Below, piece by piece: positions 18,796 to 51,292 of a stretch of DNA of 64,000 nt. The stretch's first letter is position 1. Each line of letters begins with the position of its first letter. The DNA comes from Ignavibacteria bacterium (GTDB lineage: Bacteria; Bacteroidota; Ignavibacteria; UBA10030; SZUA-254), in assembly GCA_031379665.1 (NCBI GenBank), contig JANNFI010000046.1:33899-97898 (forward strand), written 5' to 3'. Below the pieces are notes generated by a model. The model was not told where the DNA came from. It searched no databases and saw nothing but the letters and a program-made list of their open reading frames with translations. The position numbers and the translations under genes are program-made.

Positions 18796-21700
18796 TCAGC
18801 GTATCAGTGCCGCTTTTCGAACAGTGCTGAACGTCCTTTGAATCTGCTCGCCTGCCCCCGGCTCCGGTACCGCGGTCAGCGCGATGAAGTACACCCCCGA
18901 ACCGAGAGGCATGCCGTCATCTCCCCGCGCCGACCACTCAAAGACATGATCACCGGCGGAATATTGCCGAACCGTCCCTTTCGAAACGACCTCTCCGAGA
19001 ACGTTGTAGACGGTCACTGAAACGATTGATTCGGAAGGCAGCGCAATCGCAACCCGGGTTGATGGATTGAAGGGGTTCGGATAACACTGACCCATCGAAA
19101 ACCCGGCAGGTATTCCGCCGTTACCGATTCCACGGGGCTGGACTCTGAGGAAAAATTTCGAGTAGGATGTGTGCGAATATCCAGCCTTCCCTCCGCCTTT
19201 CAGGGGGACCTTCGAAACTTCCTGGGTGCCGACCCTCTCAATAAGAATATAATCGAAAAAATCCTGAATTTCTACATTCCATGAAAAATTTATTTCACTT
19301 TCGCCGTTTTTAAGGACGATTTCATACTCGACCGGGTAATTCAGGGAGTCACTATGAAACACCCCAATTTTCGCATTTTTAAAGGAATGGCCGCCCTCCT
19401 GGCCGGGCGGTGCCGGCGGGGCATCGAGTGTCCCAACCTCCCCCCTGGCCCCAAAGTAGAGGGTCGACACACCGGACCCAATTCCGACATTGAGTGAGTG
19501 TGAAATACTTCCCCTCGAACCGTGTGCGGCAGCTTCGCTCCGGGCGACAACGGCCTGCGTGATGATCAACGATCCGCTGTCCAGGCACTTCACCCAGTAT
19601 CCTCCGCCGGGCGCCAGGGAATCGGATATTTGGTATCCCGACGGAGTGTATCCGTAATACGGCGAGGTGACGAGGCTCTCCGGAACGCTCAGGATGGTGG
19701 CGACCGGTGTGGCCGCCGTGAGGGCGCCAATGATGTTCCAGCCCTTCTGTACGGCGATCGTTTCGGCTGTGACGGGGCAGCCGGTCAGGGTGGCCTGTTC
19801 GGTCCGGATCCAGTACCCTTCCCCGTGCCTGAGCGTGTCCCGTCGGAGGTACCCGTTGCGGTAACCGTATGCGCCACCCGGCGAGAAAGGAAAGAGCCTG
19901 TCCGCCCGCCGGTCGCCGGTTTCCACCGGCAGCGACATCAGGACCCACGCCCCGTTCCCCGGGATCGTGACGACGGAGCCGGGACACTGGAGGACTTCCA
20001 GATCGCCGACTGACTGGTCTGGTACAAGGAGGGTGCTGTCCCGTCGCATGTTGGCGTTCAGGCGGTCTCCGCCGGTGGCGAGGTCCCGGATGACGATCGT
20101 CCCGGCCCTGAGACTCTCCGGATCCCACGAGAGGGTGAGAGGGTAACCGTCCGGGCCTGGTTGCGCTCGCGCGCGGTACCGGTGTTCGTCCGCCGGACCC
20201 GCAAGTGTGTCACGGTAGTCCCGCCGGACGCCGTTCGTGCCGGCCAGATCCCAGCGGGCGTCGAAGGTCCCGCCCGGGGGCACTGCGGGGAGCTCGGATT
20301 CGCCGAGCCCGACATCGATCGAGTCGGTGGCGGCGGCGAGGTTCCCGAAGGAGAGCGTGTCGGCGCCGGATCCGCCGTCCGTGACGAGAAGCCATCCGGT
20401 GAATTCCGCCGGAGATAGGATCGAAAAGGTCGAGTCGCTCACGTCGACGATGGAGGTATCGTCGACGCCCCGTATCCTGACCAAACCCGTCTGTGTTGTC
20501 ACGTCGGGCACGGTCCAGTCGAAAGCCCCCGCGTCCGCCGGGGCTTCGGTAACGTACGTCCATCCGGCGCCCCCGTCGGTCGAATATTCAATTGTCACGC
20601 TGTCGAGGCTGAAGGCGATCCAGAAGATCGTCGCGCCGGAGCCTGCGTCGAGGGCCTCGCCCCCGTCGGGCGATTTCACGGTGAGGTACGCGTCGGTGAG
20701 TGTGAACAACGATTCGCTCGTCCCCGCGGTGGAAGTGAACAGGGCGTCGGAGATCCGGACCAGGCACGACTCCGAGATGGTCGGCGGGGTCGCCCAGAGG
20801 TACGACGCCTGCGAGGCGGGCACGCTGTCCGCGATGACGTTCCACGAAGCGCCGTTGTCGGTCGAATACTCCAGTCGCACGCGATAGAGGCCGGTCGAGG
20901 ACCACGTGATGGCATACTGGGAATCGCCCAGCCAGACCTCGCCTCCGTCGGGCTGGAGGACGTCGATGCCCGTCGGGTACTGGTATTTATGGATGCCGTT
21001 CGACTGGAGCGCCAGGAGGGTGAGGGAGTCGAGCGTGAGGAGGCCATAGTTGAAGTGAGAGCCCGGCATAAGGCCGTCGTTGATCTTCGACCAGTTGTCA
21101 CCGGAATCCCTTGAGAAATAAATTCCGAGCTTTGACGTGTCGCCGAAATAGGTTCCATAGTACACATACCCGGGGTGGACCGGGGAACAGGTCACCCACC
21201 AGGTATCGAGGTTGCCAGAGGGAACCGTGATATTATGCCAGGTCTCGCCCCAGTCCGTCGACTTGACCATCCCCCCTCCCCCTCCGAACTTGCTCGCATA
21301 GGCCACCCTCGGGTTGAGCGGATCGATCGCGATACTCGGGATCTCACCGAGGGTCGCATAGACCTTGCGCCATGACGAGCCGTGGTCTGCGGTCTTCCAG
21401 ATGCCGGAGAGATTGTCGCCGGCGTACATCACCGCGGCGCTGTCCGGCCGGAGCGACGCGTCACACCAGGCGTTGAACCCACGCCCGGTGCAGACGGTGT
21501 CCCAGGTCAATCCGAAATCGATCGACCGATAGACCGTATCGAGGCCCATGGTGTAGACGGTGTCGGGATGGGAAGCGGAGAATTCGACAGGCTGGCCGTA
21601 GTACGAGAAGCTCCCGGACCAGGTCTCGGTCCAGGTCAGGCCCCCGTCAGAGGATCGCATGATGCGGTCGGGGAACCCGACGCTCGACTCCATACCCACG

Positions 21701-21975
21701 AGCATCTGCAGGGTGTCGGCAGGATTGACGGAGACAGATTTCACGATGCCCCCGCCGGTGACGAGCGCGCCGTAGTTCGCCCAGTTGTACCCGCGATCCC
21801 GGCTGACGAAGACGCGGTTGCCGCCGGCCGCCGCGTAAAGCACGTCCTGGTTCAGCGGGTTGACTGCAAGGGGATTACCCAGCCCCGGTCCCGAGATTTT
21901 CTTCACCCAGGCCTGGGCGGAGAGTCCCGCGGCCAGGATCGCGGTCAGGCACAACAGTGCGATCCCGATACGCAT
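18796..21975 (-). CDS. Secreted BNR/sortilin-type beta-propeller multi-domain protein with T9SS C-terminal domain.
   Basis: Signal peptide; SxDxGxTW BNR-like motifs (SSDGGLTW, STDWGETW, STDNGASW); C-terminal QCYPNPFNPSTRVAI...VTVYNVLGEVV. Confidence 0.7.
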   Translation of the reverse strand: MRIGIALLCLTAILAAGLSAQAWVKKISGPGLGNPLAVNPLNQDVLYAAAGGNRVFVSRDRGYNWANYGALVTGGGIVKSVSVNPADTLQMLVGMESSVGFPDRIMRSSDGGLTWTETWSGSFSYYGQPVEFSASHPDTVYTMGLDTVYRSIDFGLTWDTVCTGRGFNAWCDASLRPDSAAVMYAGDNLSGIWKTADHGSSWRKVYATLGEIPSIAIDPLNPRVAYASKFGGGGGMVKSTDWGETWHNITVPSGNLDTWWVTCSPVHPGYVYYGTYFGDTSKLGIYFSRDSGDNWSKINDGLMPGSHFNYGLLTLDSLTLLALQSNGIHKYQYPTGIDVLQPDGGEVWLGDSQYAITWSSTGLYRVRLEYSTDNGASWNVIADSVPASQASYLWATPPTISESCLVRISDALFTSTAGTSESLFTLTDAYLTVKSPDGGEALDAGSGATIFWIAFSLDSVTIEYSTDGGAGWTYVTEAPADAGAFDWTVPDVTTQTGLVRIRGVDDTSIVDVSDSTFSILSPAEFTGWLLVTDGGSGADTLSFGNLAAATDSIDVGLGESELPAVPPGGTFDARWDLAGTNGVRRDYRDTLAGPADEHRYRARAQPGPDGYPLTLSWDPESLRAGTIVIRDLATGGDRLNANMRRDSTLLVPDQSVGDLEVLQCPGSVVTIPGNGAWVLMSLPVETGDRRADRLFPFSPGGAYGYRNGYLRRDTLRHGEGYWIRTEQATLTGCPVTAETIAVQKGWNIIGALTAATPVATILSVPESLVTSPYYGYTPSGYQISDSLAPGGGYWVKCLDSGSLIITQAVVARSEAAAHGSRGSISHSLNVGIGSGVSTLYFGARGEVGTLDAPPAPPGQEGGHSFKNAKIGVFHSDSLNYPVEYEIVLKNGESEINFSWNVEIQDFFDYILIERVGTQEVSKVPLKGGGKAGYSHTSYSKFFLRVQPRGIGNGGIPAGFSMGQCYPNPFNPSTRVAIALPSESIVSVTVYNVLGEVVSKGTVRQYSAGDHVFEWSARGDDGMPLGSGVYFIALTAVPEPGAGEQIQRTFSTVRKAALIR

Positions 21976-22011
21976 ATCAGCGCCAGGTGGCGGACATCGC
22001 GTTCTCCGGGG

Positions 22012-25000
22012 TCAGCGGATCAATAACATCTTCCGGACGGCGTTGAACTCTCCGGCCGTCAGGCGATAGAAGTATACCCCGGATGCGAGGTTTTCGGCGG
22101 AGATCGTCGTTGTATAATGCCCGGCGTCCTGCGAAGCGTCAAGGACTGTGGACACCTCTTCGCCGAGCGCGTCATACACCACGAGCCGCACCCTGCCGGC
22201 GCGCGGGAGGGTGTACGCGACGGTGGTCGTCGGGTTGAAGGGGTTCGGATAGTTCTGCAACAACGAGAACTCCTTCGGCACCCCGCGCGACCCCGCCACG
22301 AGGGTCAGGTTCTGCGCCTGCACCCGGCCGAGCGTGCGGCTGCCGCTCCCCTCGATTTCGGCGACCCATTCGCGGGCGTCTTCACCGGCGATTGAGGCCA
22401 GAGTGTAGACTGTGCCGGGGTCCCCCTTGATATCCCATCGTATGGTCACCGGGTACCGGGCCGACAGGATCCTCACCGGGTAGGACGATGCGGCGGCGTC
22501 CGGGGGATCGTGGAATTCAACCATCGAACCGGAGCCGAACCGCGCGTCGAAGCCGGCATCGGGCGGGACCGGCGGAAGTTCGAAGAGCTCCGGTGACGGA
22601 CTTCCGTCACTACGCCTTCCGAAGTAGAGTGTTTGCGATCTCCCCGCGCCATCCTCGATGCGGATGGAGCTCAAGTCCGCGAGAAGGTCCTTCGCCGAGG
22701 CCTTCGGCAATCCGCCGGGGACGTTCGACGGGACGTTCAGGTGGAGCGTGCCCGCCGCGTTGGACTTTATCCAGTACCCCCTTCCGGGGATGAGCGAATC
22801 GGCGGTGACGTACCCCGTGTCGTCGTAGGCGTAGAAGTTCGTCACAAGGATGGACCCGGGGTCGGTGGTGATCGATGAGACCGGCGTGATGAATGAGTTG
22901 GGGCCGATGATGTTCCACCGCTGCGCCACGGCGATCGAATCGGTGGAATCCGGAGTCCCGATGATGCTGTGGGCCGAGGCGGAGACGATTTTCGCCCAGT
23001 AGCCGGTCCTGTTCTCCATCGTGTCCGTCGGGACGAAACCCCCGTCGTATCCGTAGGCGCGGGAGTCGAGGAGCGACGACGGGAACACCCCGCTGATCGA
23101 CCGGTCGGGCACGTTCACCGGGAGCGACATCAGGTTCCACTTCTCGAAGAAATGATACGCAAAGGCGAAATTCGCGACATCGGGATGGAATGCGATTCCC
23201 TGAACGCTCGCGGTCCCCATCGGACCGATTTTCGTGCCGCCCCCGGTAAGCGTATCGATCAGGACCAGTTCATTTTGTGTCACTCCGGTACCGACCAGGC
23301 CGAAGAGGGTGCCGTTCGCGTCGAAGGCGATGTCGACCGTCTGGACGCCGAATCCAGTGGTCCCGACGAGGGTCAACGTCCCGGACGGAAGGCTTACCTT
23401 GTAGATTCCGTCTACAGGCACGCCGCTCTTTACGCTGGCCCAGAGTTCCCCCGTGACGGGGTTGAAGTCGATGCCGGCGAGTTGTTTTCCCGTCGAGGCG
23501 ACAAGGGTCGGAGTCCCCGTGGCCAGATCGACGGAGTAGATGCCACCGGTGATCCTCCCGACATAGAGCGTGTCGTCCCTGAAGGTCATCCCCTTCAGAA
23601 AATTGAGCGGGATCGTCGTAATTGTGTGCGCGTCGCCGAGGGAACTGTTGACCCTGACCACGTCGTACTCCGCGGCAGTCGTCGGCGAGTTGGTGGCGAG
23701 GCCCATCAGCTCACCCGTCGATGTCCTGACCCGGATGTTGACCAGCTGGTTGAACCCTGAGGTGCCGACCGGCGTCGTGGAGGCGTCGATCGGATCGACC
23801 GTCCGAATCCTGCCGAGGTCGATGACGCCTGAGCCGGAGTACATCGTCCCCGACGCGGCCGCGTCGATGATGAAACCGTTGCCGGAAACGGCGACCTTCA
23901 ACGCCGGCTGCACCGTGTCGTTGCTGTTCACCAGCACCGAATCGGTGAAGGAGCCGCGGTCAACCGGGACGAACCGCACCCAGAGCGTTTCCACCTCGAA
24001 CGTCGCGATCTTCAGCGGGTAGGCCGGTGTGTTGATGATGTGGAAATTGGAGTCCGGAAGGTCGATCGAGGCGACTTCGAGGGTGTCGATCCCGTTGTTC
24101 GTGAGCGTGAACGAGAGGCTGTCACTCGAATCGGTGACCTCCACTGTCCCGAATGACATCGAGTTGAGGTTCGAATAGATGTAGGCGCCCGGGAGCGGAC
24201 CCATCTTCACCATCGCGATCCTCGTGGCCCAGTCGTTCGTCGTGACGGCGTACTCGGTGTTCACCCAGATAGCCATCGAATCGGCGGGGTCGAGCGCGAT
24301 CCCCATGTAATCACCCCAGCGGTTGCGCCCGCCGCCGACGACGTTGTAGTTTCCAACCCCTTGCGCCAACGGGATACTCGGAGAAAGTCCGGGAGGGTCG
24401 GTATCCTTATGTCCCGCCACGAAGGCTCCGGGGTACTCGGTGAGCCCCGACCGGGAGTACGTGATGATGATGTTCTTGTCTGCGTCCACCATCAGTGCCG
24501 GATAGGCGTGCCAGAACCCCTCGGCCCCCATCGCGACGTCTTCGAGGTTCGTCGAGGTGTGGGGATTGATCCGGACATAACGGACGGCTGCGTAAGCGCT
24601 GTCGGTGCCGCTGGCAATGGAATGAACCATCCAGAGTGAACTGTCGCGGTAAACCGCCTTGTGCCGGATCGCGGCGCCACCCGTTTCGAGGGCAGTTCCG
24701 CCGCCCAGCTGGCTCGCGTTTCCCGGCGAGAGGTATCCCACAACGGAGATGTTTTCGCCCGTCATACTCGGGCTCCCGACCGGATCCAGGATCTTCCAGA
24801 CGCTAAAAAAGGTGCCCGGAGAGTAGGGGGACGCGTTCACCAGGTAGTGTTCGCCCGGAGAACCGTAGATGATGGAAGGCCGGACACCGTCGATCTTGAT
24901 CAAGGGATGGTCCGGTTCCCCGATGTTCCAGATGTCATCCCAGGAGACAGGGCCCGCGTCGTTGTTATAGAGCTGGGTTTTTTCGATGATCCGGACCCTT

Positions 25001-26202
25001 GAGTAGAGGAAACCCGGGTTGAATTCGCGGGAGGTTATGTAGATCGCCAGCGAGTCATAACCGATCTGAGGATAATCGGGCAGGTTACCGGTGAGGGAAT
25101 CTCCCAGACCGGCCGGCAGCGACCAGTTGTACCACGTCCCCATGGGGTCGGAATCGTCGGATACCGAGATCAGGAAACTGTACGGGGAGGCGAAATTCCC
25201 CCCCGCCATAATCCAGCGGTCGGTGAAATGATCGTAGAGGATCTGCGGGTCGCTGAAGCCGACCGGTGCGGCGACATTCGAAAACCAGGTGTTGAGGCTC
25301 CTTGTCTCGAGCAGGTTTCCGTCCTTGTCCCACACGTTGAAGTTTGAATTCACCATCCCGATGACGTGTCCGGGACCGACCGCGACGATCGGGTCGGGAG
25401 GGATGGCCCCGGTGCTGGTGTTCCCTATATGGTTTTTGAGCACAACCGGTTGCGCCGTTGCCACGGACTTCGAGCTGAGGCTCGGGTCCTTGAAGAAATT
25501 CGAGCCGATGGGGCCAGCGGCCGGGTGGACGTCGGCGGGAGCGGGGAAAAGGATCTGTGCCGGATTCAAAGACCCAACAGCGGGTTCGACGCCGATCGGT
25601 GAGGGGACGTTCTGCCCTCCGAGCACGCTCAGAACGATGGATGCCCCGCCCACGACCGATCCCGATTTTGGACCCGCGTACAGCGGATCGGGTACCGATT
25701 GGTAGACGTCCAACACGAGGTTCCCGCCCGTCGGAACGCCGCCGCTGGGCCCCCCTCCGTTCCACTCCGCGACGTGAACGTAGTAGGTCACCCCCGACTG
25801 AACCGTATATCCGATGATCGCCTGGCGGACGGTGCCGGGAACGATGTCATCGGCGCAATCCACTTCGACGAGGGCGCCGCACGACCCCGTGTACAGGCCG
25901 AGAGCGACGTCGTACGCGGCGGGTGTGCTGTTCGCGGTGCTGAATTTCACGTATTCCGTCACAAGCGGCGTGAAGGTGAACCACACGGTTTTCCCTCCGC
26001 CGGAATCAGCGCAGGCGAGGATCGGGTCGTTTGGATTCGGGGTCGCCAGAGCGGTGTTCTGCGAGTGGGTGAACGGAAGGCCGGTGACGAGCACCGCGCC
26101 CGCGCACGAATCGTTCGCCGGAATCTGGGCGAATGAACCGGTCGCGCCCCACAGGAGGAGCAGCACGACAGCGATCGAAAAATGGTAGAAGTGGATTATC
26201 AT
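22012..26202 (-). CDS. Very large (1396 aa) secreted multi-domain protein with T9SS C-terminal domain.
   Basis: Signal peptide; Cys-containing N-terminal domain (NDSCAGAVLV...CADSGGGKTVWFTF); internal WNLMSLPV / YAYDDTGY / PGRGYWIK and ELPPVPPDAGFDARF modules; C-terminal LQNYPNPFNPTTTVAY...LVVYDALGEEV. Confidence 0.7.
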   Translation of the reverse strand: MIIHFYHFSIAVVLLLLWGATGSFAQIPANDSCAGAVLVTGLPFTHSQNTALATPNPNDPILACADSGGGKTVWFTFTPLVTEYVKFSTANSTPAAYDVALGLYTGSCGALVEVDCADDIVPGTVRQAIIGYTVQSGVTYYVHVAEWNGGGPSGGVPTGGNLVLDVYQSVPDPLYAGPKSGSVVGGASIVLSVLGGQNVPSPIGVEPAVGSLNPAQILFPAPADVHPAAGPIGSNFFKDPSLSSKSVATAQPVVLKNHIGNTSTGAIPPDPIVAVGPGHVIGMVNSNFNVWDKDGNLLETRSLNTWFSNVAAPVGFSDPQILYDHFTDRWIMAGGNFASPYSFLISVSDDSDPMGTWYNWSLPAGLGDSLTGNLPDYPQIGYDSLAIYITSREFNPGFLYSRVRIIEKTQLYNNDAGPVSWDDIWNIGEPDHPLIKIDGVRPSIIYGSPGEHYLVNASPYSPGTFFSVWKILDPVGSPSMTGENISVVGYLSPGNASQLGGGTALETGGAAIRHKAVYRDSSLWMVHSIASGTDSAYAAVRYVRINPHTSTNLEDVAMGAEGFWHAYPALMVDADKNIIITYSRSGLTEYPGAFVAGHKDTDPPGLSPSIPLAQGVGNYNVVGGGRNRWGDYMGIALDPADSMAIWVNTEYAVTTNDWATRIAMVKMGPLPGAYIYSNLNSMSFGTVEVTDSSDSLSFTLTNNGIDTLEVASIDLPDSNFHIINTPAYPLKIATFEVETLWVRFVPVDRGSFTDSVLVNSNDTVQPALKVAVSGNGFIIDAAASGTMYSGSGVIDLGRIRTVDPIDASTTPVGTSGFNQLVNIRVRTSTGELMGLATNSPTTAAEYDVVRVNSSLGDAHTITTIPLNFLKGMTFRDDTLYVGRITGGIYSVDLATGTPTLVASTGKQLAGIDFNPVTGELWASVKSGVPVDGIYKVSLPSGTLTLVGTTGFGVQTVDIAFDANGTLFGLVGTGVTQNELVLIDTLTGGGTKIGPMGTASVQGIAFHPDVANFAFAYHFFEKWNLMSLPVNVPDRSISGVFPSSLLDSRAYGYDGGFVPTDTMENRTGYWAKIVSASAHSIIGTPDSTDSIAVAQRWNIIGPNSFITPVSSITTDPGSILVTNFYAYDDTGYVTADSLIPGRGYWIKSNAAGTLHLNVPSNVPGGLPKASAKDLLADLSSIRIEDGAGRSQTLYFGRRSDGSPSPELFELPPVPPDAGFDARFGSGSMVEFHDPPDAAASSYPVRILSARYPVTIRWDIKGDPGTVYTLASIAGEDAREWVAEIEGSGSRTLGRVQAQNLTLVAGSRGVPKEFSLLQNYPNPFNPTTTVAYTLPRAGRVRLVVYDALGEEVSTVLDASQDAGHYTTTISAENLASGVYFYRLTAGEFNAVRKMLLIR

Positions 26203-26438: not shown

Positions 26439-27662
26439 TTATTTGCGTAAATCATCCCTGCGCCCTGGCCTGCGACCTTCGGGACTGGCCGGCGACGGCT
26501 CCCACGTGGCGGCCGGCAACGCGGCCGACCCGGTCGGGGCGAGGACGATCGAACCTCCGCTGCCCGACCGCACCCAGTAGGCCTTCCCCGGGCGAATCGT
26601 GTCTGCCGCCTGATAACCGTCGTCGTACCCGAAGATCATCCCGGTGATGTGACCGTCCGGAATTTGCACGATCCCATCGACCGGCACCGGCTCGGCGATT
26701 GATCCGAACAGATTCCATCCCGGCTGGAGTTCGATGGTGTCCGGGTGCGTCGCCTGTCCCGTAAACGCCACTGTGTCCATCCCATCGAACCGGATCCAGT
26801 AGCCGGCCCCCGGCACCGCCACCGTCTCGGCGAGGTATCCGCCATCGTACGCGTAGAGCGGCGTCGCGGCGTCCGGGAACAACGCTGTCGCAGATGGTTC
26901 CGCGACGCTGACCGGAAGCGAGACGAGGTTCCATCTTACGTCGTAGGCGACCATCACCACGACGTCTCCTCCCGGGCCTTCCGTTCCGGACGAATCGTTC
27001 TGCGGTTCCGGGTCCCTCCGGATGAAGTCCGCCCCATTCTCGTCCGAGTCCCTCCCGTTCCCTGAAAGTTCGTCAGCACCGCCCGGCGACATCGAGGCGG
27101 CGTCCGAGGCGGCGTCGGCCTTCCTCTCGACGCTCACGGTGTTGCCGGGCGCCGGGGCCGCGCCCGTTCCCTCGAAGAGATTTGCCGTGCCGTAGCCGAC
27201 AAAATCCACGACTCCCGGACCCACCGGCCCCGCGACGGGGATCGAGTCCGAACAGAGCGCGATCTTTCCCGCAGTGGCGGCCAGGGAGATCGCCGCGACG
27301 GCGTCAGGGGACGGCAACGGAGCCGCTCCCCCGCTCCCGGGGTTCGCCTGGACGAGAAAGAAACCGTTTGCGCGAATAGTCCCCGAGAATTTGGCGACGG
27401 CCGTGAACGGTCCACTCCCCCCTCCCCCCTGGTACTGGATGGACCAGCCGCCCATCACGATGTCGGATGCCGTTGGATTATACAACTCGATGAAATCGTG
27501 CGTGAACGGCGCGCCGCTGTTGCCCCCGCCGCCGTAGACCTCGCTGATCACGACGTGGGAGAGCGGCTGGGCGTTGACGGGGAACGTGACGAACAGGAGC
27601 AGCGCGAAAACGAATACACGACCTCCGATACGACGAAATGGATTGCACTGACGCATGGACAC
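26439..27662 (-). CDS. Secreted lamin-tail-domain (LTD) protein with two copies of the WN(L/I)xSLPV/YxYDxGY/PGxxYW(V/I)R module; no T9SS tail.
   Basis: Signal peptide; VISEVYGGGGNSGAPFTHDFIELYNPT matches the LTD signature; module copies at VRWNLVSLPV...YAYDGGY...PGAGYWIRF and PGWNLFGSIA...FGYDDGY...PGKAYWVRS. Confidence 0.6.
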   Translation of the reverse strand: MSMRQCNPFRRIGGRVFVFALLLFVTFPVNAQPLSHVVISEVYGGGGNSGAPFTHDFIELYNPTASDIVMGGWSIQYQGGGGSGPFTAVAKFSGTIRANGFFLVQANPGSGGAAPLPSPDAVAAISLAATAGKIALCSDSIPVAGPVGPGVVDFVGYGTANLFEGTGAAPAPGNTVSVERKADAASDAASMSPGGADELSGNGRDSDENGADFIRRDPEPQNDSSGTEGPGGDVVVMVAYDVRWNLVSLPVSVAEPSATALFPDAATPLYAYDGGYLAETVAVPGAGYWIRFDGMDTVAFTGQATHPDTIELQPGWNLFGSIAEPVPVDGIVQIPDGHITGMIFGYDDGYQAADTIRPGKAYWVRSGSGGSIVLAPTGSAALPAATWEPSPASPEGRRPGRRDDLRK

Positions 27663-27829: not shown

Positions 27830-30007
27830 CTACCTCACGAGGACGAGGTTTTGCGTCTCGATGTATTCGGTGGTGATGACCATATAGAAATAGACCCCGC
27901 TCGGAACCGGTTGGCCCCCCGAGTCCAGTCCATCCCAACCGGGCGCGCCGTTGTCGCGGCTGTAACTCCCCGCGGGAAACGTCCCTGCGATAATTACCCG
28001 GACCAGCTGCCCGAGCGCATCGTAGATCTGGACACTTACCGGAGACTCCTGGCCGAGGTTGAACGGCAGGAAGGCCACCCCGTCCCGTCGCGGGACGAAC
28101 GGGTTCGGCTGGCTCTGTCCGACGTGATCGACTTTGGCGTTCCGCGGGGGGGGTGGCGGAGGTTCCGGCGGAAGGTCGCCGCCGCCATCGGTTGTGCGCA
28201 GGATGGTGCCGCTCCCGCCGACCACCCATCCGTTAACCGAATCGGTGAAGGAAATGCTGTACATCACCCGGTCGGTCCTCGAGTCGAGTTCGAACCAGTT
28301 GCTCCCGCCGTCGAGTGTCCGCAGGATGGTCCCCGAACCGCCGGTGAGCCAGCCTCTGCGGTGGTCGGTGAAAGTGACGTCGAGGAAATGCACGCTGCCG
28401 CGGGAAGGATTGTTCTGGGACCTCCAGGTGAGGCCGCCATCGGTCGTCTTGATGATCCTGTGAAATTTACCCACGGCCCATCCCGTGTCCCGGTCGGTGA
28501 ACCAGAGGGAGAGCAGTGTGCGCGCGTCCTGGGCGACGGAGTCCCACGTGGCGCCGCGGTTGGTCGTCCGGAATATGGTCGTAAGTTCGTTCAGGTCGCC
28601 GTAGTTTCCGAGGAGCCAGCCGAGCGAGTCGGCGGCGAAGTACATCGCGACATAGGAATAATTGGTGTCGCCGGGGTCGTCGTCATTCCAGGTGTTTCCT
28701 CCGTCGGTGGTTTTCAGCCTGGTCCCCTCCTCCCCGAGCACCCAACCGGTCGAGGCGTCGAGGAAGTAGACCGACGCGAGGGCGCCGCCTGCGCCGAGCG
28801 AGTCGACCGACCAGCTGAACCCGTCGGTCGTCTGGATGACCGTGCCCGCGTCCCCGACTGCCCACCCGGCTGTGGGTGAAGTGAAGAAGACCGAACGAAG
28901 CGACGTTGCCACCGGGGCCGGGTCCTTGATCCAGTTCTGGCCGCCGTTGAGGGTCCGCATCACGGTCCCGAGCGCCCCGACGCACCAGCCGACCTGACCG
29001 TTGAGGAAATAACTGTCGTAGAGGTCGGTAGTGGCGTTGTCGGCGAGCCGTGTCCAGGTCGCGCCGTTGTCGACGGTTTGGGTGATCACGCCGTTGTTGC
29101 CGACGACCCAGCCCCTGCTGAGCGAGGGAAATGCCAGGGCGTTCAGGGTGTTCACCGAGTCGAGGATCTTCGGAATCCAGGAAAAGCCGCCGTTGGTCGT
29201 GGAGAGGAAATACTTGTCGGCCACGGCGTACCCGATCGCCGGGTTGGAAAATTGAACGTCTGATATGGTGGTCGGAACGAGCGTGAACTGCTGGTGCCAG
29301 CTTGTCCCGCCGTCCGACGTCGTCAGCATTGCGCCACCCGTCCCGCCGACCCAGCCTGTGTCCGGCGAGGTGAAGTGGACCGCATGGTAGTCGCGGCCGA
29401 TGATCGTGTCGGGGACGGGAAACCACGAAATGCCCGCGTCGATGGTCTTGATGATGACACCGCCGTCACCCACGGCGTACCCCGTCAGTCCGTTCGCGAA
29501 GGAGATGTCACGCAGAGTGTAGGCCGTACCGGAGGCGACCAGCTGCCACTGCAGGCCGGCATCGGTCGAGCGAAGGATCGCCCCGCCGTCCCCCACGATG
29601 AACCCGGTACCGGAGCCGATGGCAGTCGTCCCGTGGAACGTCCCGACGGTTACGGCCGAGTTGCGGGCGATCCAGTTGGAACCGCCGTCGGAGGTGAGGT
29701 AGATCGAGGCGTCAGATCCGACGACCCATCCCCGGGTCGCTGAGACGAACTGCAAGGCGTGCAGGCTCGTCCCGACGTCGGCGATGTTGGTGCTGGTCCA
29801 CGTCGCGCCGCCGTTCGTCGTCTTTAGGAATGTCGACGCAGAGCCGGCAATCAGGAAAGTGTTGATGTCGATCGCCTGCACGGCCCTGAGGCTGTTCCCC
29901 TGCGGGAGGGGATTCTGCCATTCCCAGCGTTCTGCCTGGGCGGGAAGCGCCGCAACACACGCGAGCGAAAGAGCGAGAATGTGGAGCGTCCGTCGGATCA
30001 TCATCAT
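27830..30007 (-). CDS. Secreted Ycf48/BNR-like beta-propeller protein with T9SS C-terminal domain.
   Basis: Signal peptide; many (T/S)xDGGxxW repeats (TTNGGATW, TSDGGSNW, STDAGLQW...); C-terminal SQPNPFVP...VQIYDALGQLV. Confidence 0.7.
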   Translation of the reverse strand: MMMIRRTLHILALSLACVAALPAQAERWEWQNPLPQGNSLRAVQAIDINTFLIAGSASTFLKTTNGGATWTSTNIADVGTSLHALQFVSATRGWVVGSDASIYLTSDGGSNWIARNSAVTVGTFHGTTAIGSGTGFIVGDGGAILRSTDAGLQWQLVASGTAYTLRDISFANGLTGYAVGDGGVIIKTIDAGISWFPVPDTIIGRDYHAVHFTSPDTGWVGGTGGAMLTTSDGGTSWHQQFTLVPTTISDVQFSNPAIGYAVADKYFLSTTNGGFSWIPKILDSVNTLNALAFPSLSRGWVVGNNGVITQTVDNGATWTRLADNATTDLYDSYFLNGQVGWCVGALGTVMRTLNGGQNWIKDPAPVATSLRSVFFTSPTAGWAVGDAGTVIQTTDGFSWSVDSLGAGGALASVYFLDASTGWVLGEEGTRLKTTDGGNTWNDDDPGDTNYSYVAMYFAADSLGWLLGNYGDLNELTTIFRTTNRGATWDSVAQDARTLLSLWFTDRDTGWAVGKFHRIIKTTDGGLTWRSQNNPSRGSVHFLDVTFTDHRRGWLTGGSGTILRTLDGGSNWFELDSRTDRVMYSISFTDSVNGWVVGGSGTILRTTDGGGDLPPEPPPPPPRNAKVDHVGQSQPNPFVPRRDGVAFLPFNLGQESPVSVQIYDALGQLVRVIIAGTFPAGSYSRDNGAPGWDGLDSGGQPVPSGVYFYMVITTEYIETQNLVLVR

Positions 30008-30008
30008 C

Positions 30009-34976: not shown

Positions 34977-34995
34977 CGGACTTCGGACTGGGTGG

Positions 34996-36030: not shown

Positions 36031-36071
36031 AAAAAGGCACCGAGGCCAGTGAAGGCCTTCGGTACCTTTTT
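36031..36071 (-). terminator. Rho-independent terminator downstream of the pilin-like gene.
   Basis: Imperfect hairpin GGCACCGAGGCC...GGCCTTCGGTACC flanked by A-run/T-run (reads as bidirectional). Confidence 0.5.
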
Positions 36072-36096
36072 GCCTTTGAAGCAGGATCAGTTCAGC

Positions 36097-42327: not shown

Positions 42328-43407
42328 TCAGAACCCCACCAAGAGGGTAATGACGTGATTCCCCCCAAAAAAATCCGCCGGACGATACGCATAATCAACC
42401 TGAATTATCAGGTTTTGAACGGTTTCGTGGACTCCCACGCCGAACGCCGGACCGAAGATTGATTGGTTTCCTTCTGACTCGGTGGAATAATCGTACCCTC
42501 CCCTGACGAAAAATCGCTCCCGGTACCCGAATTCGGCACCAAATTTGTATTGGTCGTCGGCGAAATTATTATTCCGGAAAAGGGTCGACACCCCGATGTC
42601 GATCGGTTCGCTCAGGTGGTGGAGATATCCCAGGCCCACTTCGATGGTCGACGGCAGGTCGGCCGATGCCGCCTCAACCTTGTAGTTCGTTTCCGGCCGG
42701 TCTGCACTGACGACGACGCCCGTGCGGTCGAGCCCCTCCCCCTCGTAGACGAGTTTCGGTCCGATGTTCCTGATGACCACGCCCACACTCAGGCCTTCAA
42801 TCCCGCCGAGGCGGGCGTACTGCACCCCCCCGGTGAACGCGATGCCGGTCGCGGAGACCTCGGCCATTTTTTCATAGATGAAGTTTGCGGAGATGCCGAC
42901 GGCGATCTGGTCCGACATTCGGCGCGAAAACGTCCCGCCGACGACGAGGAATGTCGGCGAGATCACCTCGCCGGTTCCGTCGGGGAACAGTTCCGTCGTC
43001 ACCGGGATCTCCCCCACCGAGAGCGCCTGGATGGTGACGCCGAGATACGCCCCTCCGGAAAGGCTGGTGCCCGCCGCAAAATAATCGACGCCGATGTCGG
43101 CGAGGTAGGTCATGTGCGAGAACAGGAGTTCCGACGACCGGTCGGTCGTGACGAGGCCCGCCGGATTCCAGGAGATGGCCTCGATCCCCGAGATCGAGGA
43201 AAGGATCGAGCCCCCGAGCGAGATCGAGCGGGCGCCCAGCGGTATGGAGAGCTGCATCGCCGAAGCCGAGCCGACCTTGTCCCCGCGCCCTGCGAGCGTG
43301 GTCGACTGGAAAGCGAGCGACCCCACGATCGACCAAACGAGCATCCAGGCCGCTGCCATCGCCAGCCCGGCGCCGGCCCTTCGGCGGTATCGACAGGTCG
43401 TGGTCAT
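42328..43407 (-). CDS. porV: T9SS outer-membrane channel protein PorV (PorV/PorQ family, FadL-like).
   Basis: N-terminal GARSISLGGSILSSISGIEAISWNPAGL matches the conserved PorV N-terminal motif; about 360 aa, beta-barrel-like; its start overlaps the stop of the upstream large gene, as in known porU-porV operons. Confidence 0.65.
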   Translation of the reverse strand: MTTTCRYRRRAGAGLAMAAAWMLVWSIVGSLAFQSTTLAGRGDKVGSASAMQLSIPLGARSISLGGSILSSISGIEAISWNPAGLVTTDRSSELLFSHMTYLADIGVDYFAAGTSLSGGAYLGVTIQALSVGEIPVTTELFPDGTGEVISPTFLVVGGTFSRRMSDQIAVGISANFIYEKMAEVSATGIAFTGGVQYARLGGIEGLSVGVVIRNIGPKLVYEGEGLDRTGVVVSADRPETNYKVEAASADLPSTIEVGLGYLHHLSEPIDIGVSTLFRNNNFADDQYKFGAEFGYRERFFVRGGYDYSTESEGNQSIFGPAFGVGVHETVQNLIIQVDYAYRPADFFGGNHVITLLVGF

Positions 43408-46760: not shown

Positions 46761-46808
46761 ACGAGCGGCGCAGAGGGTCGAAGCGTCGGGGGGGGCGGTG
46801 GTCGAACG

Positions 46809-49800
46809 CTATTTCAGGAGCAGCATCTTTCGCGTTTCGATGAACGATCCCCGGCCGCCGGTTTCCAGCCCGGATGAAGTCGCGGCCATCCGGACATAGT
46901 ACGCGCCGCTCGGCATTGGGGACCCGGACGAATTCTGGCCGTCCCAGGTGACGGAATAGACGCCCGGGGAATAATCGCCATCGGCAAGAACAGCAACTTC
47001 CCTGCCGAGAAGGTCGTAGACTGTGACCCGGACCCTCGAGTCGGTTTCGGCCGAGAAGGCGATCTGCGTCGTCGGATTGAACGGGTTGGGGTAATTCTGC
47101 GAAAGCTGGTAGCCGGTCGGGGTCGACGGCCGGGGCGGCTGTACGTCATTGATGAGCGGGTACGCGCCGTACCGGATCAGGAGCACGCTCGTGACGCTCG
47201 AATTGGCAACCGAGACGGTGCCGGTCTGGTCCATCCGCGCATACACCGATGATCCGCCGAATTCGTCCCTGACGATCATGCTATCGCAGACCGAGGTGAT
47301 GAAATTCCTCTCCCACGAGAGTACGATCGGATAGCTCCCGGTCCCCGGCTGGAACCGTACGCGGTACGTATCAACCTGGGAATAGGTCACGAACGGGAGC
47401 AGGTTGACCCTGAGCCCCTCGCCGAGGTCGCACGAAGGCCCGCCGGGAGAAACGAATCGGGCGTCGAATGTGCCGGGGAATGGCGGGGGCGGCAGTTCGA
47501 ACTCTCCGAGCCATGCTTCGATTCCGCACGATGCGTCGGGATGGAGGCCGAGGTAGACCGTGTCCCTGGCCTGGCCGGTCTCACGGATCGCGAGCGGCAT
47601 CAGCCAGTTGGCAACCCCAATGAAGGTCGTCCTGAAGTTGAAGATCGGCGACCACGAACCCGTCCCCACTGAATTCTTCCCCTGGACGCGCCAGAAATAC
47701 CGTATGTGGCTCTGCAACGGGCCGGTCTGCCAGCTTGTATTCACGATGTTCGAATCGTCCGAGAAGATGCTCGTGAACGCGGAGTCCCGCGCGACCTGGA
47801 GCCGGTACGACACGGCGTTTTCCGGTACGCTCCAAGAAAAGACCGGCGCCGATGTGACCCCCTCGGCATTGTACAATGGTGAAATCAGCGTCGGTGCGGC
47901 CGGCGGAGAGAGCGTGGTGAATCGGTAGAAATTCGAATACGGACTGGTACCGGCGGAATTGTTCGCGCTCACCCTCCAGTAGTAGGTGGTGCTGTTGAGT
48001 AAAAAGGTAAATGTCTTGCAGCGGTTCGACCCCGACGACGTGTCGTTGTAGGTGAGGGTCGAAAAATTGGAATCGATGGCGACCTGAAGGCGGTACGACG
48101 TAGCCCTTGCGGCCGAATCCCAGCACAGGTTGACCGGAAGCGGCAGGCTCCCCGAGCCGTTGGCCGGTGAGGCCAGCAGGGGCGCCGACGGTGTCGTAAG
48201 CGCCGTCGTCCTGAACCTGAAGTAGGCCGAGGGCGTCCCCTGCCCGAGATTATTCACCCCGCGGACCCTCCAGAAGTGGTCGGTGTTCCCGTCGAGGGGA
48301 CCGACAAGCAGCGAGGTTGCGCCCACCGTCTGGTCTGTGACGATCAATGTAAAGAGTGAATCCCTCGCCAGTTCGAGGCGGTACTGGAACGCGCAGGCTT
48401 CGCCCTGCCAGCTCAGCGTGGTGATTTCGTCAACGTTCAGCGTGCCGTTGGCCGGAAGAAGAAGTCCCGGGGCCGAGGAAAGGGCCCGGACGACGCGGAA
48501 GTTCCTCGAGGCATAGGGCCCTGCGCCGGTGCCGTTCTTTGCCCGGACGCGCCAGTAATACGTCCGGCAGTTCTCGAGCGGGAGTGTCACGAAGGTTGTA
48601 TCGGTGATGGTATCGTCGCTCACGAGCGATGCGAACACGGCGTCGGTGGCGACCTGGACCTGGTAGGAATCGACCTGTGTTGCGCTCAACCACCGTAGCG
48701 GCGCGGACGGGGGCACCGCGGTATCGCCGGGCGCCGGCGCGAGGATTGACGGGGCAGCGGGTGCATTGAGGAGCGTCGTGAACCTCCTGGCCGGACCGTA
48801 GGCGCCGGTGTCGGTCCCCTGGTTCTTCGCCCGCACCCTCCAGAAATAGATCGTGAGCTCCTGGAGCGGACCGACCGAGCGGGACAAGGTCGTGAGGTTG
48901 TCGAAAACGAGCGGCGATGAGAAGAGCGAATCGGCAGAAACTTCCAGCTTGTACGTTTTTGAACAACTGTCGGCGCCGCTCCAGGAGAGCGTCAGGGTGG
49001 TCGGCTGTGCGGCCGCGTTGTCGGCCGGGGAGACCGGCGCCGGAGCGCCGGGGGCGGCAAGGGCGACGGTGAACGAGCGGACCAGCGACCAAGGGCTGCT
49101 GCCCGTGGCGTTCTTCGCACGCACCCTCCAGTACCGGGTCACGCAATTCGGGAACGGACCCACCGCCTGGGATGTGAGCGTGATTGTCGAGTCGACGAAC
49201 ACGAGCTGTGTGAAATTCTGGTTGGGCGAGACCTCGAGCCGGTAACTCGTCGCGGTCGCGGCCGCGTTCCAGCTGAGTGTCGGCGAGACGGCGACGCCCG
49301 AGGCCCCGTTCGCCGGCGCGGCGAGCGTCGGCGCCGGGGGGCCGGTCGTAATGGTCTGGAATGAGGCCGTCGACGAGAAGCAACCGGTCAGGAACGGATG
49401 CACCGCGCTTACCCTCCAGTAAATCGTATCGTTGGGCCCGACCGTGAAGGCCCGGGTCGTAGTCGAGAGAGTATCCCTGAGGACGAACGTCGCGAACGTG
49501 GGGACCGTCGAGACATGGAGGATATATTCCGTAGCGTTGGCCACCGGCGGCCACGTGAAAGTCACGTTCGTGTCGACGTCGATCGCGCCGCTCGCGGGGG
49601 TGGTGGTCGTCGGCACGCCCGGGTAGCTCTGCGCCTTCGGGTGATAGAGGAAGATATAGAGGGAATTGAACGAGGTGTTCGTCAGCACGAAAGAGTCAAC
49701 CGCCAGCATATTGACGCTGACGCCGCCGAACTGCGGCGGCAGGCCGATCGGGTCGCGCAGCCTGATGCTGTCGGCGAACACAGACAACCCCTGGGGCCAG

Positions 49801-50207
49801 CGAAACTTGAACGGGTACCCCCCCGCCCCGGGCTGGAACTGGATCTTGAACGTGTCGACATCGGACCCTCCGGTGAAACCGGTGATGTTCTCAGCCATCC
49901 CCACGCCCAGGCACGCGCCCGTGTTCCTGACTTCGACGAAACGTGCGTCGAACACCCCGCCCGGCGGAATCGGGGGAAGCTCCGACTCCACGATCGTGTC
50001 GCAGTTCCCGAATTTCAGTGTGACGCCGTCGATGCAGTAGGAGGCCTGCGGGTGAACGCCAAAGATCAGCGTGTCGCGCTTGACCGTGTTGTCACTGACG
50101 TAGAAGGGAATCCTGAACTGCGTCTGGGAAACAAGGGAGCCGACCGCGGAAAGCAGCACAATGAGGATGGAGACCGCCGCCCGATATGTCGATGGTCGTG
50201 GTAGCAT
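46809..50207 (-). CDS. Secreted protein with about 9 tandem Fn3-like repeats (PxxPxLxxPANG...SYRLxV...YYWRVRAKN) and T9SS C-terminal domain (1132 aa).
   Basis: Repeated ~90-aa units each ending in YYWRV(R/S)AxN; two ELPPxPPxGxFDARF modules; C-terminal LSQNYPNPFNPTTQIAF...VTVYDLLGREV. Confidence 0.7.
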   Translation of the reverse strand: MLPRPSTYRAAVSILIVLLSAVGSLVSQTQFRIPFYVSDNTVKRDTLIFGVHPQASYCIDGVTLKFGNCDTIVESELPPIPPGGVFDARFVEVRNTGACLGVGMAENITGFTGGSDVDTFKIQFQPGAGGYPFKFRWPQGLSVFADSIRLRDPIGLPPQFGGVSVNMLAVDSFVLTNTSFNSLYIFLYHPKAQSYPGVPTTTTPASGAIDVDTNVTFTWPPVANATEYILHVSTVPTFATFVLRDTLSTTTRAFTVGPNDTIYWRVSAVHPFLTGCFSSTASFQTITTGPPAPTLAAPANGASGVAVSPTLSWNAAATATSYRLEVSPNQNFTQLVFVDSTITLTSQAVGPFPNCVTRYWRVRAKNATGSSPWSLVRSFTVALAAPGAPAPVSPADNAAAQPTTLTLSWSGADSCSKTYKLEVSADSLFSSPLVFDNLTTLSRSVGPLQELTIYFWRVRAKNQGTDTGAYGPARRFTTLLNAPAAPSILAPAPGDTAVPPSAPLRWLSATQVDSYQVQVATDAVFASLVSDDTITDTTFVTLPLENCRTYYWRVRAKNGTGAGPYASRNFRVVRALSSAPGLLLPANGTLNVDEITTLSWQGEACAFQYRLELARDSLFTLIVTDQTVGATSLLVGPLDGNTDHFWRVRGVNNLGQGTPSAYFRFRTTALTTPSAPLLASPANGSGSLPLPVNLCWDSAARATSYRLQVAIDSNFSTLTYNDTSSGSNRCKTFTFLLNSTTYYWRVSANNSAGTSPYSNFYRFTTLSPPAAPTLISPLYNAEGVTSAPVFSWSVPENAVSYRLQVARDSAFTSIFSDDSNIVNTSWQTGPLQSHIRYFWRVQGKNSVGTGSWSPIFNFRTTFIGVANWLMPLAIRETGQARDTVYLGLHPDASCGIEAWLGEFELPPPPFPGTFDARFVSPGGPSCDLGEGLRVNLLPFVTYSQVDTYRVRFQPGTGSYPIVLSWERNFITSVCDSMIVRDEFGGSSVYARMDQTGTVSVANSSVTSVLLIRYGAYPLINDVQPPRPSTPTGYQLSQNYPNPFNPTTQIAFSAETDSRVRVTVYDLLGREVAVLADGDYSPGVYSVTWDGQNSSGSPMPSGAYYVRMAATSSGLETGGRGSFIETRKMLLLK

Positions 50208-50285
50208 ACCTGAGAGTAAGGAAATGCGGAAGCTCTCCGTGGGGAGAACTTCCGCATCTCGGAATTAATCCGGGTAGAATGAGTA

Positions 50286-51176
50286 TTACTTGAGGAGCAG
50301 GAGCTTGCGCAGCCCGCTGAACCCGGCGTCGTCGCCGGTCGCGACCATCCGGACGAAGTAGACGCCCGTCGTGACGCTCTGGCCATTGTCGTCGGTGCCG
50401 TTCCAGGTCGTGGTGTAGAAACCCGGTGTCATTGTTTCCGCGGCGAGAGTCTTCACCCTCTGCCCGATGACGTTGTACACCGCCACATCCGTGAACGCCG
50501 TCTTCTCAACCGCGAACCTGATGGTGGTCGAAGGATTGAAGGGATTGGGATAATTCTGCTGGAGTTCGAATTGCTCGGGAATCAGCTCGCCTTCGCGGTC
50601 GATTTCGAGAAGGCCCGCACCCTTGGAGCGTCCGATGATGATCAGCGACGTGAACGCCGAATTAGTGACGATGAGCTGCGTATCGACCAACATGTTGACT
50701 CTGAAGCCGAACGGCGGACCCGCGCCAAACGGGTCTTCGATCTTCAGGCTGTCCCAGTCGGATGCGATCCACGCGGCCCAGGTCCCCCACGAGAAGGTGA
50801 ACGGGTATCCGCCGTCGCTCGGCTGGAATTCCATTTTGAAGGTGTCGAGTTTGGCGACTTCCTGAATGTGGAGCCGCTGGCCGGTGCCGAGGCACGGACC
50901 GCTGGTGCGATGGTCCGTGAAACGGAAGTCGAAGACGCCTGTCGGCGGCTTGGGAGGAAGTTCCTCTTCGAAATATCCGCCGGGCGAGAGCGTCGCGTCC
51001 TTGCAATATGTTGCGTTGATGTGAACCCCGAACGTGTCCGTGCCGACACCTATGCCGTTGTCACGGGCTGTGATCGGCACGACGCCGTAATCATTCTGCG
51101 CGAATGAGCTGGAGACCGCGAGGGCCAGAACCGCGAGCGCCACAACAAGGGTGAGCCGAAATGTTTGCAGGTTCAT
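50286..51176 (-). CDS. Small secreted protein with ELPPKPPTGVFDFRF module and T9SS C-terminal domain.
   Basis: Signal peptide from Met at 51176; C-terminal LQQNYPNPFNPSTTIRF...VAVYNVIGQRV. Confidence 0.65.
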   Translation of the reverse strand: MNLQTFRLTLVVALAVLALAVSSSFAQNDYGVVPITARDNGIGVGTDTFGVHINATYCKDATLSPGGYFEEELPPKPPTGVFDFRFTDHRTSGPCLGTGQRLHIQEVAKLDTFKMEFQPSDGGYPFTFSWGTWAAWIASDWDSLKIEDPFGAGPPFGFRVNMLVDTQLIVTNSAFTSLIIIGRSKGAGLLEIDREGELIPEQFELQQNYPNPFNPSTTIRFAVEKTAFTDVAVYNVIGQRVKTLAAETMTPGFYTTTWNGTDDNGQSVTTGVYFVRMVATGDDAGFSGLRKLLLLK

Positions 51177-51292
51177 CTGATGTAGCCTTCCTCTGATAAG
51201 TGTAAAATTGTCCGGTGATTTAGTGTCAGGTGCCTCGCACCGACCGCCAAGGGGAATATACAAACTGATTTTGTCTAATTCAACAGATCAAT

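Follow-up and report, generated by a model that had tools for sequence, protein, structure and literature searches.

A cluster of genes for large secreted proteins in an Ignavibacteria bacterium raises the question of whether the short motifs shared by their products mark genuine protein domains and, if so, what these domains might do. The cluster lies within a 64,000-nucleotide stretch of contig JANNFI010000046.1 (assembly GCA_031379665.1, positions 33,899 to 97,898 of the forward strand), referred to here as the window; all positions given below are window positions. The original prediction had noted an ELPPxPPxGxFDARF motif and a WN(L/I)xSLPV...YxYDxGY...PGxGYW(V/I)K unit in seven of these proteins and had proposed that together they form a mobile, uncharacterized domain pair. 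The present analysis confirmed the observation of two real and evolutionarily constrained domain families. They are named here A, which contains the ELPP motif, and BB, a tandem pair of the WNL units. Both are strongly associated with type A cargo of the T9SS (type IX secretion system), and they probably serve as non-catalytic stalk (A) and binding (BB) modules in the surface display of such cargo.

Detection of the two repeats

Regular-expression scanning, applied both to the proteins and to the six-frame translation, placed every listed ELPP and WNL instance in frame in the named minus-strand genes. Elsewhere in the 64-kb window, whether in other frames or in other genes, none was detected. 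The ELPP copies in o22012, o38863, o46809 (two copies) and o50286 were of the described quality, while that of o36797 is degenerate and o18796 has one good copy along with the degenerate one noted before. The TLxFG segment ahead of the motif is real, being a β-strand whose glycine is invariant in the alignment of the window copies. The description of the WNL unit had to be corrected on two counts. It spans about 73 residues rather than about 60, and it was found twice in tandem in all four proteins that contain it, never once.

To avoid circularity, hidden Markov models (HMMs) were built from non-window homologues only and run against all 673 stop-to-stop six-frame segments of the window. The BB model matched exactly four regions (E-values of 5e-34 to 3e-47). 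The A model matched seven (1e-13 to 8e-44), together with the degenerate copy in o18796 (E 0.05), and no off-target match was detected with either model in the six frames. Compared with one another, the window copies of A align over 130–165 residues with 23–44% identity (BLASTP E-values of 1e-5 to 1e-36) and those of BB over 135–146 residues with 31–41% identity (1e-16 to 1e-32). At the DNA level only short matches of at most 54 nt with about 75% identity were found. This ruled out recent duplication or an assembly repeat, and the copies are therefore old paralogues.

The region from 16.6 to 29.1 kb is syntenic, with about 80% nucleotide identity, with a contig from an uncultured Ignavibacteria metagenome-assembled genome (MAG; MFD02809.bin.2.75, locus L001). 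Comparison with the orthologues in L001 gave dN/dS values of 0.12 and 0.24 for BB and 0.16 for A. The Ala/Pro-rich linker that joins BB to A had a value of 0.26 with 59% amino acid identity, and the poorly conserved tail that follows BB in o26439 had a value of 0.62 with 28% identity. Both A and BB are thus under purifying selection.

The proline-rich look of the ELPP motif is the one feature that recalls a chance resemblance between low-complexity proline-rich or aromatic sequences. That explanation is excluded by the external-only E-values of 1e-13 to 1e-47 with no off-target match in six frames, by the whole-domain alignments, confident folds and purifying selection, and by thousands of homologues elsewhere. 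That A and BB are true domain families is close to certain.

Domain BB

BB has about 150 residues and in o18796, o22012, o26439 and o38863 it always consists of two tandem units of about 73 residues. Profile–profile comparison of the first and second halves showed them to be homologous (HHalign probability 99.1%, E 4e-19), so BB arose by internal duplication. The 147-residue BB of o22012 was modeled with AlphaFold2 using an alignment of 50 sequences, giving a mean predicted local distance difference test (pLDDT) score of 94.9 and a predicted template modeling (pTM) score of 0.88. The model is a single compact all-β domain with six to seven strands per unit; DSSP assigned 14 strands and one short helix. 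The domain is small and rich in conserved aromatic residues. A single B unit is part of a broader and looser set of GWNLIS...PGxGYWVK repeats in unrelated proteins, among which are the weaker matches P0068, P0076 and P0083.

Searching with one BB sequence retrieved no homologues, and a profile of the four window copies was required. This profile identified 83 metagenome proteins, none of which has a Pfam domain over the BB region. Where the matches are named, they are hypothetical proteins of ‘Bacteroidota bacterium’ MAGs.

Domain A

Aligning about 170 residues around each ELPP showed that conservation extends well beyond the motif, over a domain of 130–165 residues. In order, it comprises a first strand, the TLxFG strand, ELPPxPPxGxFDARF, a YxxxxQ strand, YPxxxxW and three to four further strands. 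Only two prolines are invariant in all 25 aligned A sequences. At least 90% of them also retain the TLxFG glycine, a third proline, the FDARF Asp and Arg and the Trp, and the glycine and the Trp are invariant among the eight window copies. The 165-residue N-terminal A of o46809 was modeled with AlphaFold2 from 25 sequences (pLDDT 82.4, pTM 0.81) as a β-sandwich with ten strands by DSSP. Residues 36–43 form a low-confidence loop, which is an insertion specific to this copy. As modeled, A is a generic β-sandwich.

In the A model the PPIPPGGVFD block, with a pLDDT of about 90, has no regular secondary structure and continues into the FDARF strand. The conservation of these residues and the confident modeling of the motif suggest that the prolines, the FDARF Asp and Arg and the Trp most likely act as a structural clamp of the fold and not as a ligand motif. 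A different proposal would be that ELPPxPP is itself a functional short linear motif, serving either as a stiff polyproline spacer or as a site recognized for processing, glycosylation or attachment close to the point at which the C-terminal domain (CTD) of T9SS cargo is cleaved. The invariance of only two prolines across the 25 sequences fits this proposal, as does the retention of the motif in short linkers between BB and a CTD from which the rest of A is missing. Nevertheless, where A is N-terminal or present in several copies, hundreds of residues separate the motif from any CTD. It is modeled confidently as part of the domain beside the FDARF strand, and the Trp and the FDARF Asp and Arg are conserved along with it, in keeping with a structural role. 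A linear-motif function is accordingly considered improbable.

The short linkers just mentioned mark a shortened cassette in which BB and the CTD are about 35 residues apart and a conserved IRIxPTxELPPxPP sequence remains (P0006, P0009, P0014, P0024 and P0050). In locus L011 (3796–6783) the 35-residue linker contains EFPPPPP.

An N-terminal type of A with a conserved cysteine pair, A[ST]xC[IL]D...C[LF][GD], was also observed (49632–50126, 50619–51092 and 47169–47612; P0088–P0090, P0094, P0096 and P0098). The two cysteines probably form a disulfide. They are lacking in the CTD-proximal A domains of o22012 and o38863 and retained in the CTD-proximal second A of o46809.

Copies in the window

The seven host proteins are all encoded on the minus strand, as are their modules, and the E-values given here for individual copies refer to the profiles made only from non-window homologues. 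The 1059-residue product of o18796 (18796–21975) starts with a signal peptide and a head that is a sortilin/BNR propeller; Ig-like domains follow, and then A, BB, a degenerate A and a type A CTD. It matched Sortilin-Vps10 and FlgD_ig in Pfam, and Por_Secre_tail in NCBIfam with 29.1 bits against a cutoff of 23. Its first A (19984–20409, E 7.6e-20) contains the motif SELPAVPPGGTFDARW and is followed by BB, with its two tandem WNL...GYWxK units (19531–19980, E 3.9e-41). The degenerate second A, LDAPPAPPGQEGGHSF, lies just before the CTD (19156–19512, E 0.05). It is the weakest member of the family, and it aligns with the other copies and retains the Gly, Pro and Trp columns.

The product of o22012 (22012–26202, 1396 residues) has a large head and an Ig-like domain (ASH/choice-of-anchor D) followed by BB, A and a CTD. 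It has 86% amino acid identity to its L001 orthologue with a dN/dS of 0.10. Its BB (22714–23175, E 4.3e-44), the copy that was modeled, has the dN/dS of 0.12 given above, and its A, FELPPVPPDAGFDARF, which is directly upstream of the CTD (22285–22683, E 6.4e-25), that of 0.16. The smaller o26439 (26439–27662, 407 residues) has a signal peptide, a lamin-tail domain (Pfam LTD, E 2.9e-13) and a BB in C-terminal position (26514–26966, E 3.4e-47), and ends 25 residues past it.

In o36797 (36797–38749, 650 residues) the signal peptide is followed by an N-terminal A, a region without known family and a CTD. This A has the degenerate motif NELPPVPPSGADQAPDVRL and starts at the predicted mature N-terminus (38201–38671, E 1.1e-13). 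An orthologue of o36797 occupies the same position in locus L012, from an Ignavibacteriota MAG. The neighboring o38863 (38863–42036, 1057 residues) has a head without known family, BB (39583–40044, E 5.5e-34), A with the motif FELPPAPPAGSFDVRF (39157–39561, E 1.4e-41) and a CTD. It has orthologues in L012, with the same neighbors, and in locus L044, with some of them, and the metagenome proteins P0085–P0087 have 76–79% identity to its A domain.

Two further proteins have A and no BB. The product of o46809 (46809–50207, 1132 residues) has a signal peptide, A, an array of Fn3/Ig_Rha78A_N-type domains, a second A and a CTD, and is identical to P0106 of the public collection. The N-terminal A, SELPPIPPGGVFDARF, is the modeled copy (49632–50126, E 8.3e-44); the second, FELPPPPFPGTFDARF, precedes the CTD (47169–47612, E 7.1e-25). 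The minimal protein o50286 (50286–51263) has at most 325 residues, the true start probably being the internal Met of MNLQTF..., and consists of only a signal peptide, an A with the motif EELPPKPPTGVFDFRF (50619–51092, E 6.9e-25) and a CTD. The homologues P0088–P0090, P0094 and P0096 have the same architecture.

Comparison with known families

Searches of Pfam-A (2025) and NCBIfam (release 20) with the host proteins gave matches only outside A and BB, and neither module is covered by a family in these databases, which bears out their description as uncharacterized. When 50 BB sequences were scanned singly at E ≤ 1, no consistent family emerged, with seven different families matched by one sequence each. 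None of the 25 A sequences matched either database under the same threshold. Sequence searches of the PDB, single and profile, found nothing below E 0.14, and Foldseek gave no match in the PDB. A text search of the literature with the motif strings returned no relevant paper, and a publication on ‘long’ T9SS CTDs concerns CTD length and not upstream domains (PMC11969387).

It had been suggested that the unit might be a lectin-like β-sandwich. Both modules are indeed predicted to be all-β; nevertheless, no lectin or carbohydrate-binding module (CBM) structure matched A or BB in the fold searches, and no CBM or lectin family was found for BB by sequence or fold. The two modules were also compared with each other and with the CTD. 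HHalign gave a probability of less than 1% for a relation between A and B. The possibility that the B units or A are divergent CTDs was rejected, as the B1, B2 and A profiles compared with an alignment of 10 window and 120 homologue CTDs had probabilities of 0.1–0.2%. A and BB are thus two unrelated extracellular all-β families without a match in Pfam, NCBIfam or solved structures. As families they are new, yet their kind is familiar, namely that of accessory β modules in secreted proteins of modular build. They do not amount to a new system.

Association with type IX secretion

All long open reading frames (ORFs) taken as genes between about 13.8 and 56.7 kb of the window are on the minus strand, and their products are large proteins with N-terminal signal peptides. 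Matches above threshold to Por_Secre_tail (Pfam) and/or TIGR04183 (NCBIfam) were found in o16208, o18796, o22012, o30009, o36797, o38863, o46809, o50286, o51351 and the gene at 13837. Six of the seven proteins with A or BB (o18796, o22012, o36797, o38863, o46809 and o50286) matched TIGR04183 with 25–41 bits against a cutoff of 23. As an exception, no type A CTD was detected in o26439 by the Pfam or NCBIfam scan.

All seven host proteins have a signal peptide, read directly from the translations as a hydrophobic stretch at the N-terminus that closes with AQ or SQ. These endings fit the Q-rule of Bacteroidetes as outlined in PMC5837995, and by the same rule the N-terminal A copies would begin right at the Gln exposed by signal-peptide cleavage.

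In the middle of the cargo island, o42328 (42328–43407, minus strand), which adjoins o38863, encodes an outer-membrane protein of the PorV/PorQ family, a T9SS component (NCBIfam NF033709, E 6.1e-44, 150.9 bits against a cutoff of 90). This gene is the evidence for T9SS machinery in the window, and the core translocon genes lie outside it. From these sequence features, the six host proteins with a CTD are almost certainly T9SS type A cargo, for which secretion, CTD cleavage and surface attachment are predicted.

Architectures in other genomes

Among 1.84 billion cluster representatives at 50% identity, the A profile matched 3,791 at E ≤ 1e-3, 2,012 at 1e-10 and 257 at 1e-30. In the best 149 A-bearing proteins a CTD was detected in 125 with the CTD profile of this analysis, and Pfam agreed in every sampled case. 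A is located within the first 70 residues in 92 of these 149 proteins, and BB is also present in 58 and absent in 91. Their commonest architectures are A-A-CTD (52), A-BB-A-CTD (28), A-A-A-CTD (18) and A-A-BB-A-CTD (15), and CTD-anchored arrays have up to seven copies of A. In multi-copy proteins, as in o46809, A alternates with Fn3/Ig_Rha78A_N-type domains and no enzyme domain is present.

BB was sought in one genome per species with the four-sequence alignment and a single peptide pattern. At least 55 loci were found, a lower bound given the single pattern. The labels of their MAGs include Ignavibacteria/Ignavibacteriota, Melioribacteraceae, ‘Chlorobiaceae’, Marinimicrobia/Neomarinimicrobiota, Kapaibacterium and Balneolaceae, among others. 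A few are odd (Winogradskyella, Armatimonadota and an archaeon), and these may be binning errors.

A complete BB was present in 86 ORFs of the 55 loci. By HMM envelope, A starts 0–25 residues after BB in 50 of them, 46 of which also have a CTD. In a further 32 the ORF ends 0–27 residues after BB with no CTD, and other sequence follows BB in the remaining four. A CTD lies downstream of BB in 49 ORFs; the end of BB and the start of the CTD are 122–168 residues apart in 48 of them, corresponding to one A domain, and 35 residues apart in one. The recurrent cassette is thus [variable head]–BB–A–[type A CTD], found in genomes of Ignavibacteria, Melioribacteraceae, Marinimicrobia and Kapaibacterium. 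Other locations of A are the mature N-terminus and the arrays with Fn3/Ig domains, and there are minimal proteins composed of a signal peptide, a CTD and either A or BB.

These architectures support the term mobile in the sense of domain shuffling, as the modules stand behind differing heads. In the window a head may be a sortilin/BNR propeller, an Fn3 array, a lamin-tail domain or a region without known family, while in other genomes they include M1 and C10 peptidases, glycoside hydrolases of families GH18 and GH57, a PPAD-type deiminase and a nuclease. The notion of a domain pair has statistical support, given the 50 of 86 BB ORFs in which A follows directly. The pairing is nevertheless not obligatory, with BB standing alone at the C-terminus in 32 of 86 ORFs and A occurring without BB in 91 of 149 proteins.

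Proposed roles and alternatives

Our favored reading, which we consider likely, is that A and BB are non-catalytic modules, stalk and binding respectively, for the surface display of T9SS cargo. The two roles are plausible by analogy with known systems. T9SS cargo has its CTD removed after export and is joined to surface lipopolysaccharide. In the cargo of Porphyromonas gingivalis, such as the gingipain RgpB, an Ig-like domain of the immunoglobulin superfamily (IgSF) precedes the CTD. Similarly, the CTD-proximal A is the final folded domain ahead of the type A CTD, is predicted to be a β-sandwich and would stay attached to the surface after CTD removal. In the proposed sequence of events, the signal peptide would direct the protein to the periplasm and the CTD would take it through the T9SS. 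The CTD would then be cut off and the new C-terminus, at the end of A, linked to lipopolysaccharide. The CTD-proximal A would serve as a membrane-proximal stalk or spacer, and BB, the next domain outward, as a non-catalytic binding module that holds the head on its ligand or on the cell surface.

A non-catalytic binding or retention function would agree with the position of BB, with its conserved aromatic residues and with the varied hydrolases that carry it. Like the carbohydrate-binding and lectin-like modules of secreted enzymes, BB is small, all-β and aromatic-rich, and it is found at the C-terminus of GH18, GH57, M1, C10, deiminase and nuclease proteins as well as on adhesin-like proteins. 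Unlike them, it has a two-unit pseudo-dimeric build that has no counterpart among PDB hits. That A is a non-catalytic building block is suggested by its alternation with Fn3/Ig domains in enzyme-free proteins and by the minimal A+CTD proteins.

Several points weigh against this reading. The picture of A as a lipopolysaccharide-linked stalk is drawn by analogy with P. gingivalis cargo and from general T9SS knowledge. The IRIxPTxELPPxPP sequence that persists between BB and the CTD in small proteins without the rest of A fits badly with a purely structural ELPPxPP. Finally, a plain binding module does not by itself explain why enzymes of classes that normally are T9SS cargo, PPAD-type deiminase, C10 peptidase and GH18 among them, have BB in place of the CTD as their very C-terminus.

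The ORFs that end at BB have signal peptides and heads that are BNR sialidase-like, M1 peptidase, GH57, PPAD-type deiminase, C10 peptidase, nuclease with lamin-tail or GH18. Enzymes that end at BB and have no T9SS sorting domain were observed in loci L003, L013, L017–L019, L027–L029, L031–L034, L036, L039, L046–L050 and L054. Several of these classes are T9SS cargo in Bacteroidota that have been studied in more detail.

Terminal BB could be viewed as a C-terminal signal of a new class that directs export or sorting by the T9SS or another outer-membrane route and is used in place of the type A CTD. The terminal BB proteins stop right past the last BB strand, their heads belong to classic T9SS cargo classes, and L039 has an orthologue of the o38863 head in a protein that stops at BB and lacks A–CTD. 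BB also shares host proteins with the type A CTD (Por_Secre_tail PF18962/TIGR04183), which is a β domain about the size of one B unit, and like the CTD it can be exactly C-terminal. Nevertheless, BB and A usually precede a genuine CTD. In 50 of 86 ORFs BB has an internal position, with A and in most cases a normal CTD behind it, which is unlike a secretion signal. The B units have no profile–profile relation to the type A CTD (HHalign probability below 1%), and BB matches no NCBIfam sorting-domain model. Terminal and internal BBs are not separate subfamilies either: nearest-neighbor labels agreed in 57 of 79 cases compared with 53% expected, mostly tracking lineage. A sorting function of BB therefore seems very improbable.

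The distribution of the modules is partly complementary, with BB-terminal enzymes on one side and CTD-bearing A arrays on the other. This invites comparison, as a functional analogy only, with cohesin and dockerin. In such a scheme the terminal BB of CTD-less enzymes would bind A displayed on T9SS-anchored proteins and tether the enzymes non-covalently to the surface; the displayed A would be carried by the minimal A+CTD proteins, by proteins with an N-terminal A and by (A–Fn3)n–CTD ‘scaffolds’. The 32 of 86 BB ORFs that end within 0–27 residues, with signal peptides and enzyme heads and no CTD, would suit the scheme, as would the anchored arrays with up to seven A copies and the A+CTD-only proteins, o50286 among them. 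BB and A stand next to each other in a clear majority of cases, and in seven instances the ORF following a terminal-BB ORF, 114–141 nt on, starts with a signal peptide and A.

Nevertheless, the loci are generally rich in A genes and this adjacency may be incidental, and the gene after that of o26439, the CTD-less BB protein of the window, does not begin with A. Neither BB nor A has sequence or fold similarity to cohesin or dockerin, and dockerin is a helical calcium-binding duplicate in contrast to the all-β BB. The small BB+CTD proteins would be superfluous to one-way docking. Furthermore, BB and A are most often fused in one chain, where the fast-evolving Ala/Pro-rich linker joins them like ordinary beads on a string. 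Docking of BB on A is accordingly regarded as unlikely. The broader proposal, that the two constitute a previously unknown non-covalent surface-assembly system in bacteria of the Fibrobacteres–Chlorobi–Bacteroidetes (FCB) group and dock on each other within fused BB–A–CTD proteins, is slightly less likely still.

The value of defining A and BB lies in annotation and structural genomics, of BB especially. Large parts of the predicted surface proteome are unannotated in Ignavibacteria, Marinimicrobia and related uncultured FCB lineages. Names and boundaries are now available for recurring pieces of thousands of T9SS cargo proteins (A alone accounts for about 3,800 clusters at 50% identity), and the variable head can be separated from the conserved BB–A–CTD tail. 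BB is a structural target, having a very confident predicted structure without a PDB counterpart. Its presence on CTD-less secreted enzymes poses the question of how these are retained or exported in T9SS-bearing bacteria. The present understanding of secretion is unchanged unless the docking or the sorting explanation is true.

Neighboring genes

The genes around the PorV/PorQ-like gene have a conserved order. From 46715 to 32397 on the minus strand it runs o43404, o42328, o38863 (BB–A–CTD), o36797 (A...CTD), a small secreted protein, o34996 and o32397. The first of these encodes a 1103-residue protein without known family and with a CTD-like tail, and overlaps o42328 by 4 nt. The whole order is also found in the Ignavibacteriota MAG locus L012 (1–12467) with just 30–50% amino acid identity, and the first three genes recur in L044 (1–7143). 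The arrangement looks like an operon-level unit that ties a dedicated PorV/Q-like protein to particular cargo.

The last three genes (32397–36645, minus strand) are o36097, for a secreted protein of 182 residues with a weak match to DUF4402 (E 0.023), o34996, for a 278-residue protein with a signal peptide and no known family, and o32397, for an outer-membrane-like protein of 859 residues with a C-terminal CarboxypepD_reg domain. The trio resembles the subunit, chaperone and usher set of a fimbria-like structure.

A third shared module of about 190–250 residues was observed just before the CTD in o16208 (residues 540–804), o36797 (321–650) and o51351 (1479–1796), in the C-terminal parts of genes at 16208–18622, 36797–38749 and 51351–56741. 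Its copies have 31–36% identity (E 1e-27 to 1e-41) and contain ...GExxALKLN...GxxP...L.Y...; no Pfam or NCBIfam match was found over the segment.

Two adjacent paralogues of 725 and 766 residues (27830–32309, minus strand) have Ycf48/BNR-type β-propeller repeats (PSII_BNR, E 5e-57 and 2e-62). Their tails are of CTD type, with Por_Secre_tail above threshold in o30009 and FlgD_ig only in o27830. Beyond the island, a 501-residue protein (57700–59205, minus strand) has a GvpL/GvpF gas-vesicle-type domain in its C-terminal half (E 3.5e-13) and a faint match to a contractile-injection-system tape-measure family in its N-terminal half (E 0.017). Finally, the N-terminus of o16208 (18520–18622, minus strand) has a signal peptide with a simple (LV)n repeat, FFLLVLVLVLVLVLILLV, which may stem from a short tandem DNA repeat or a misplaced start.

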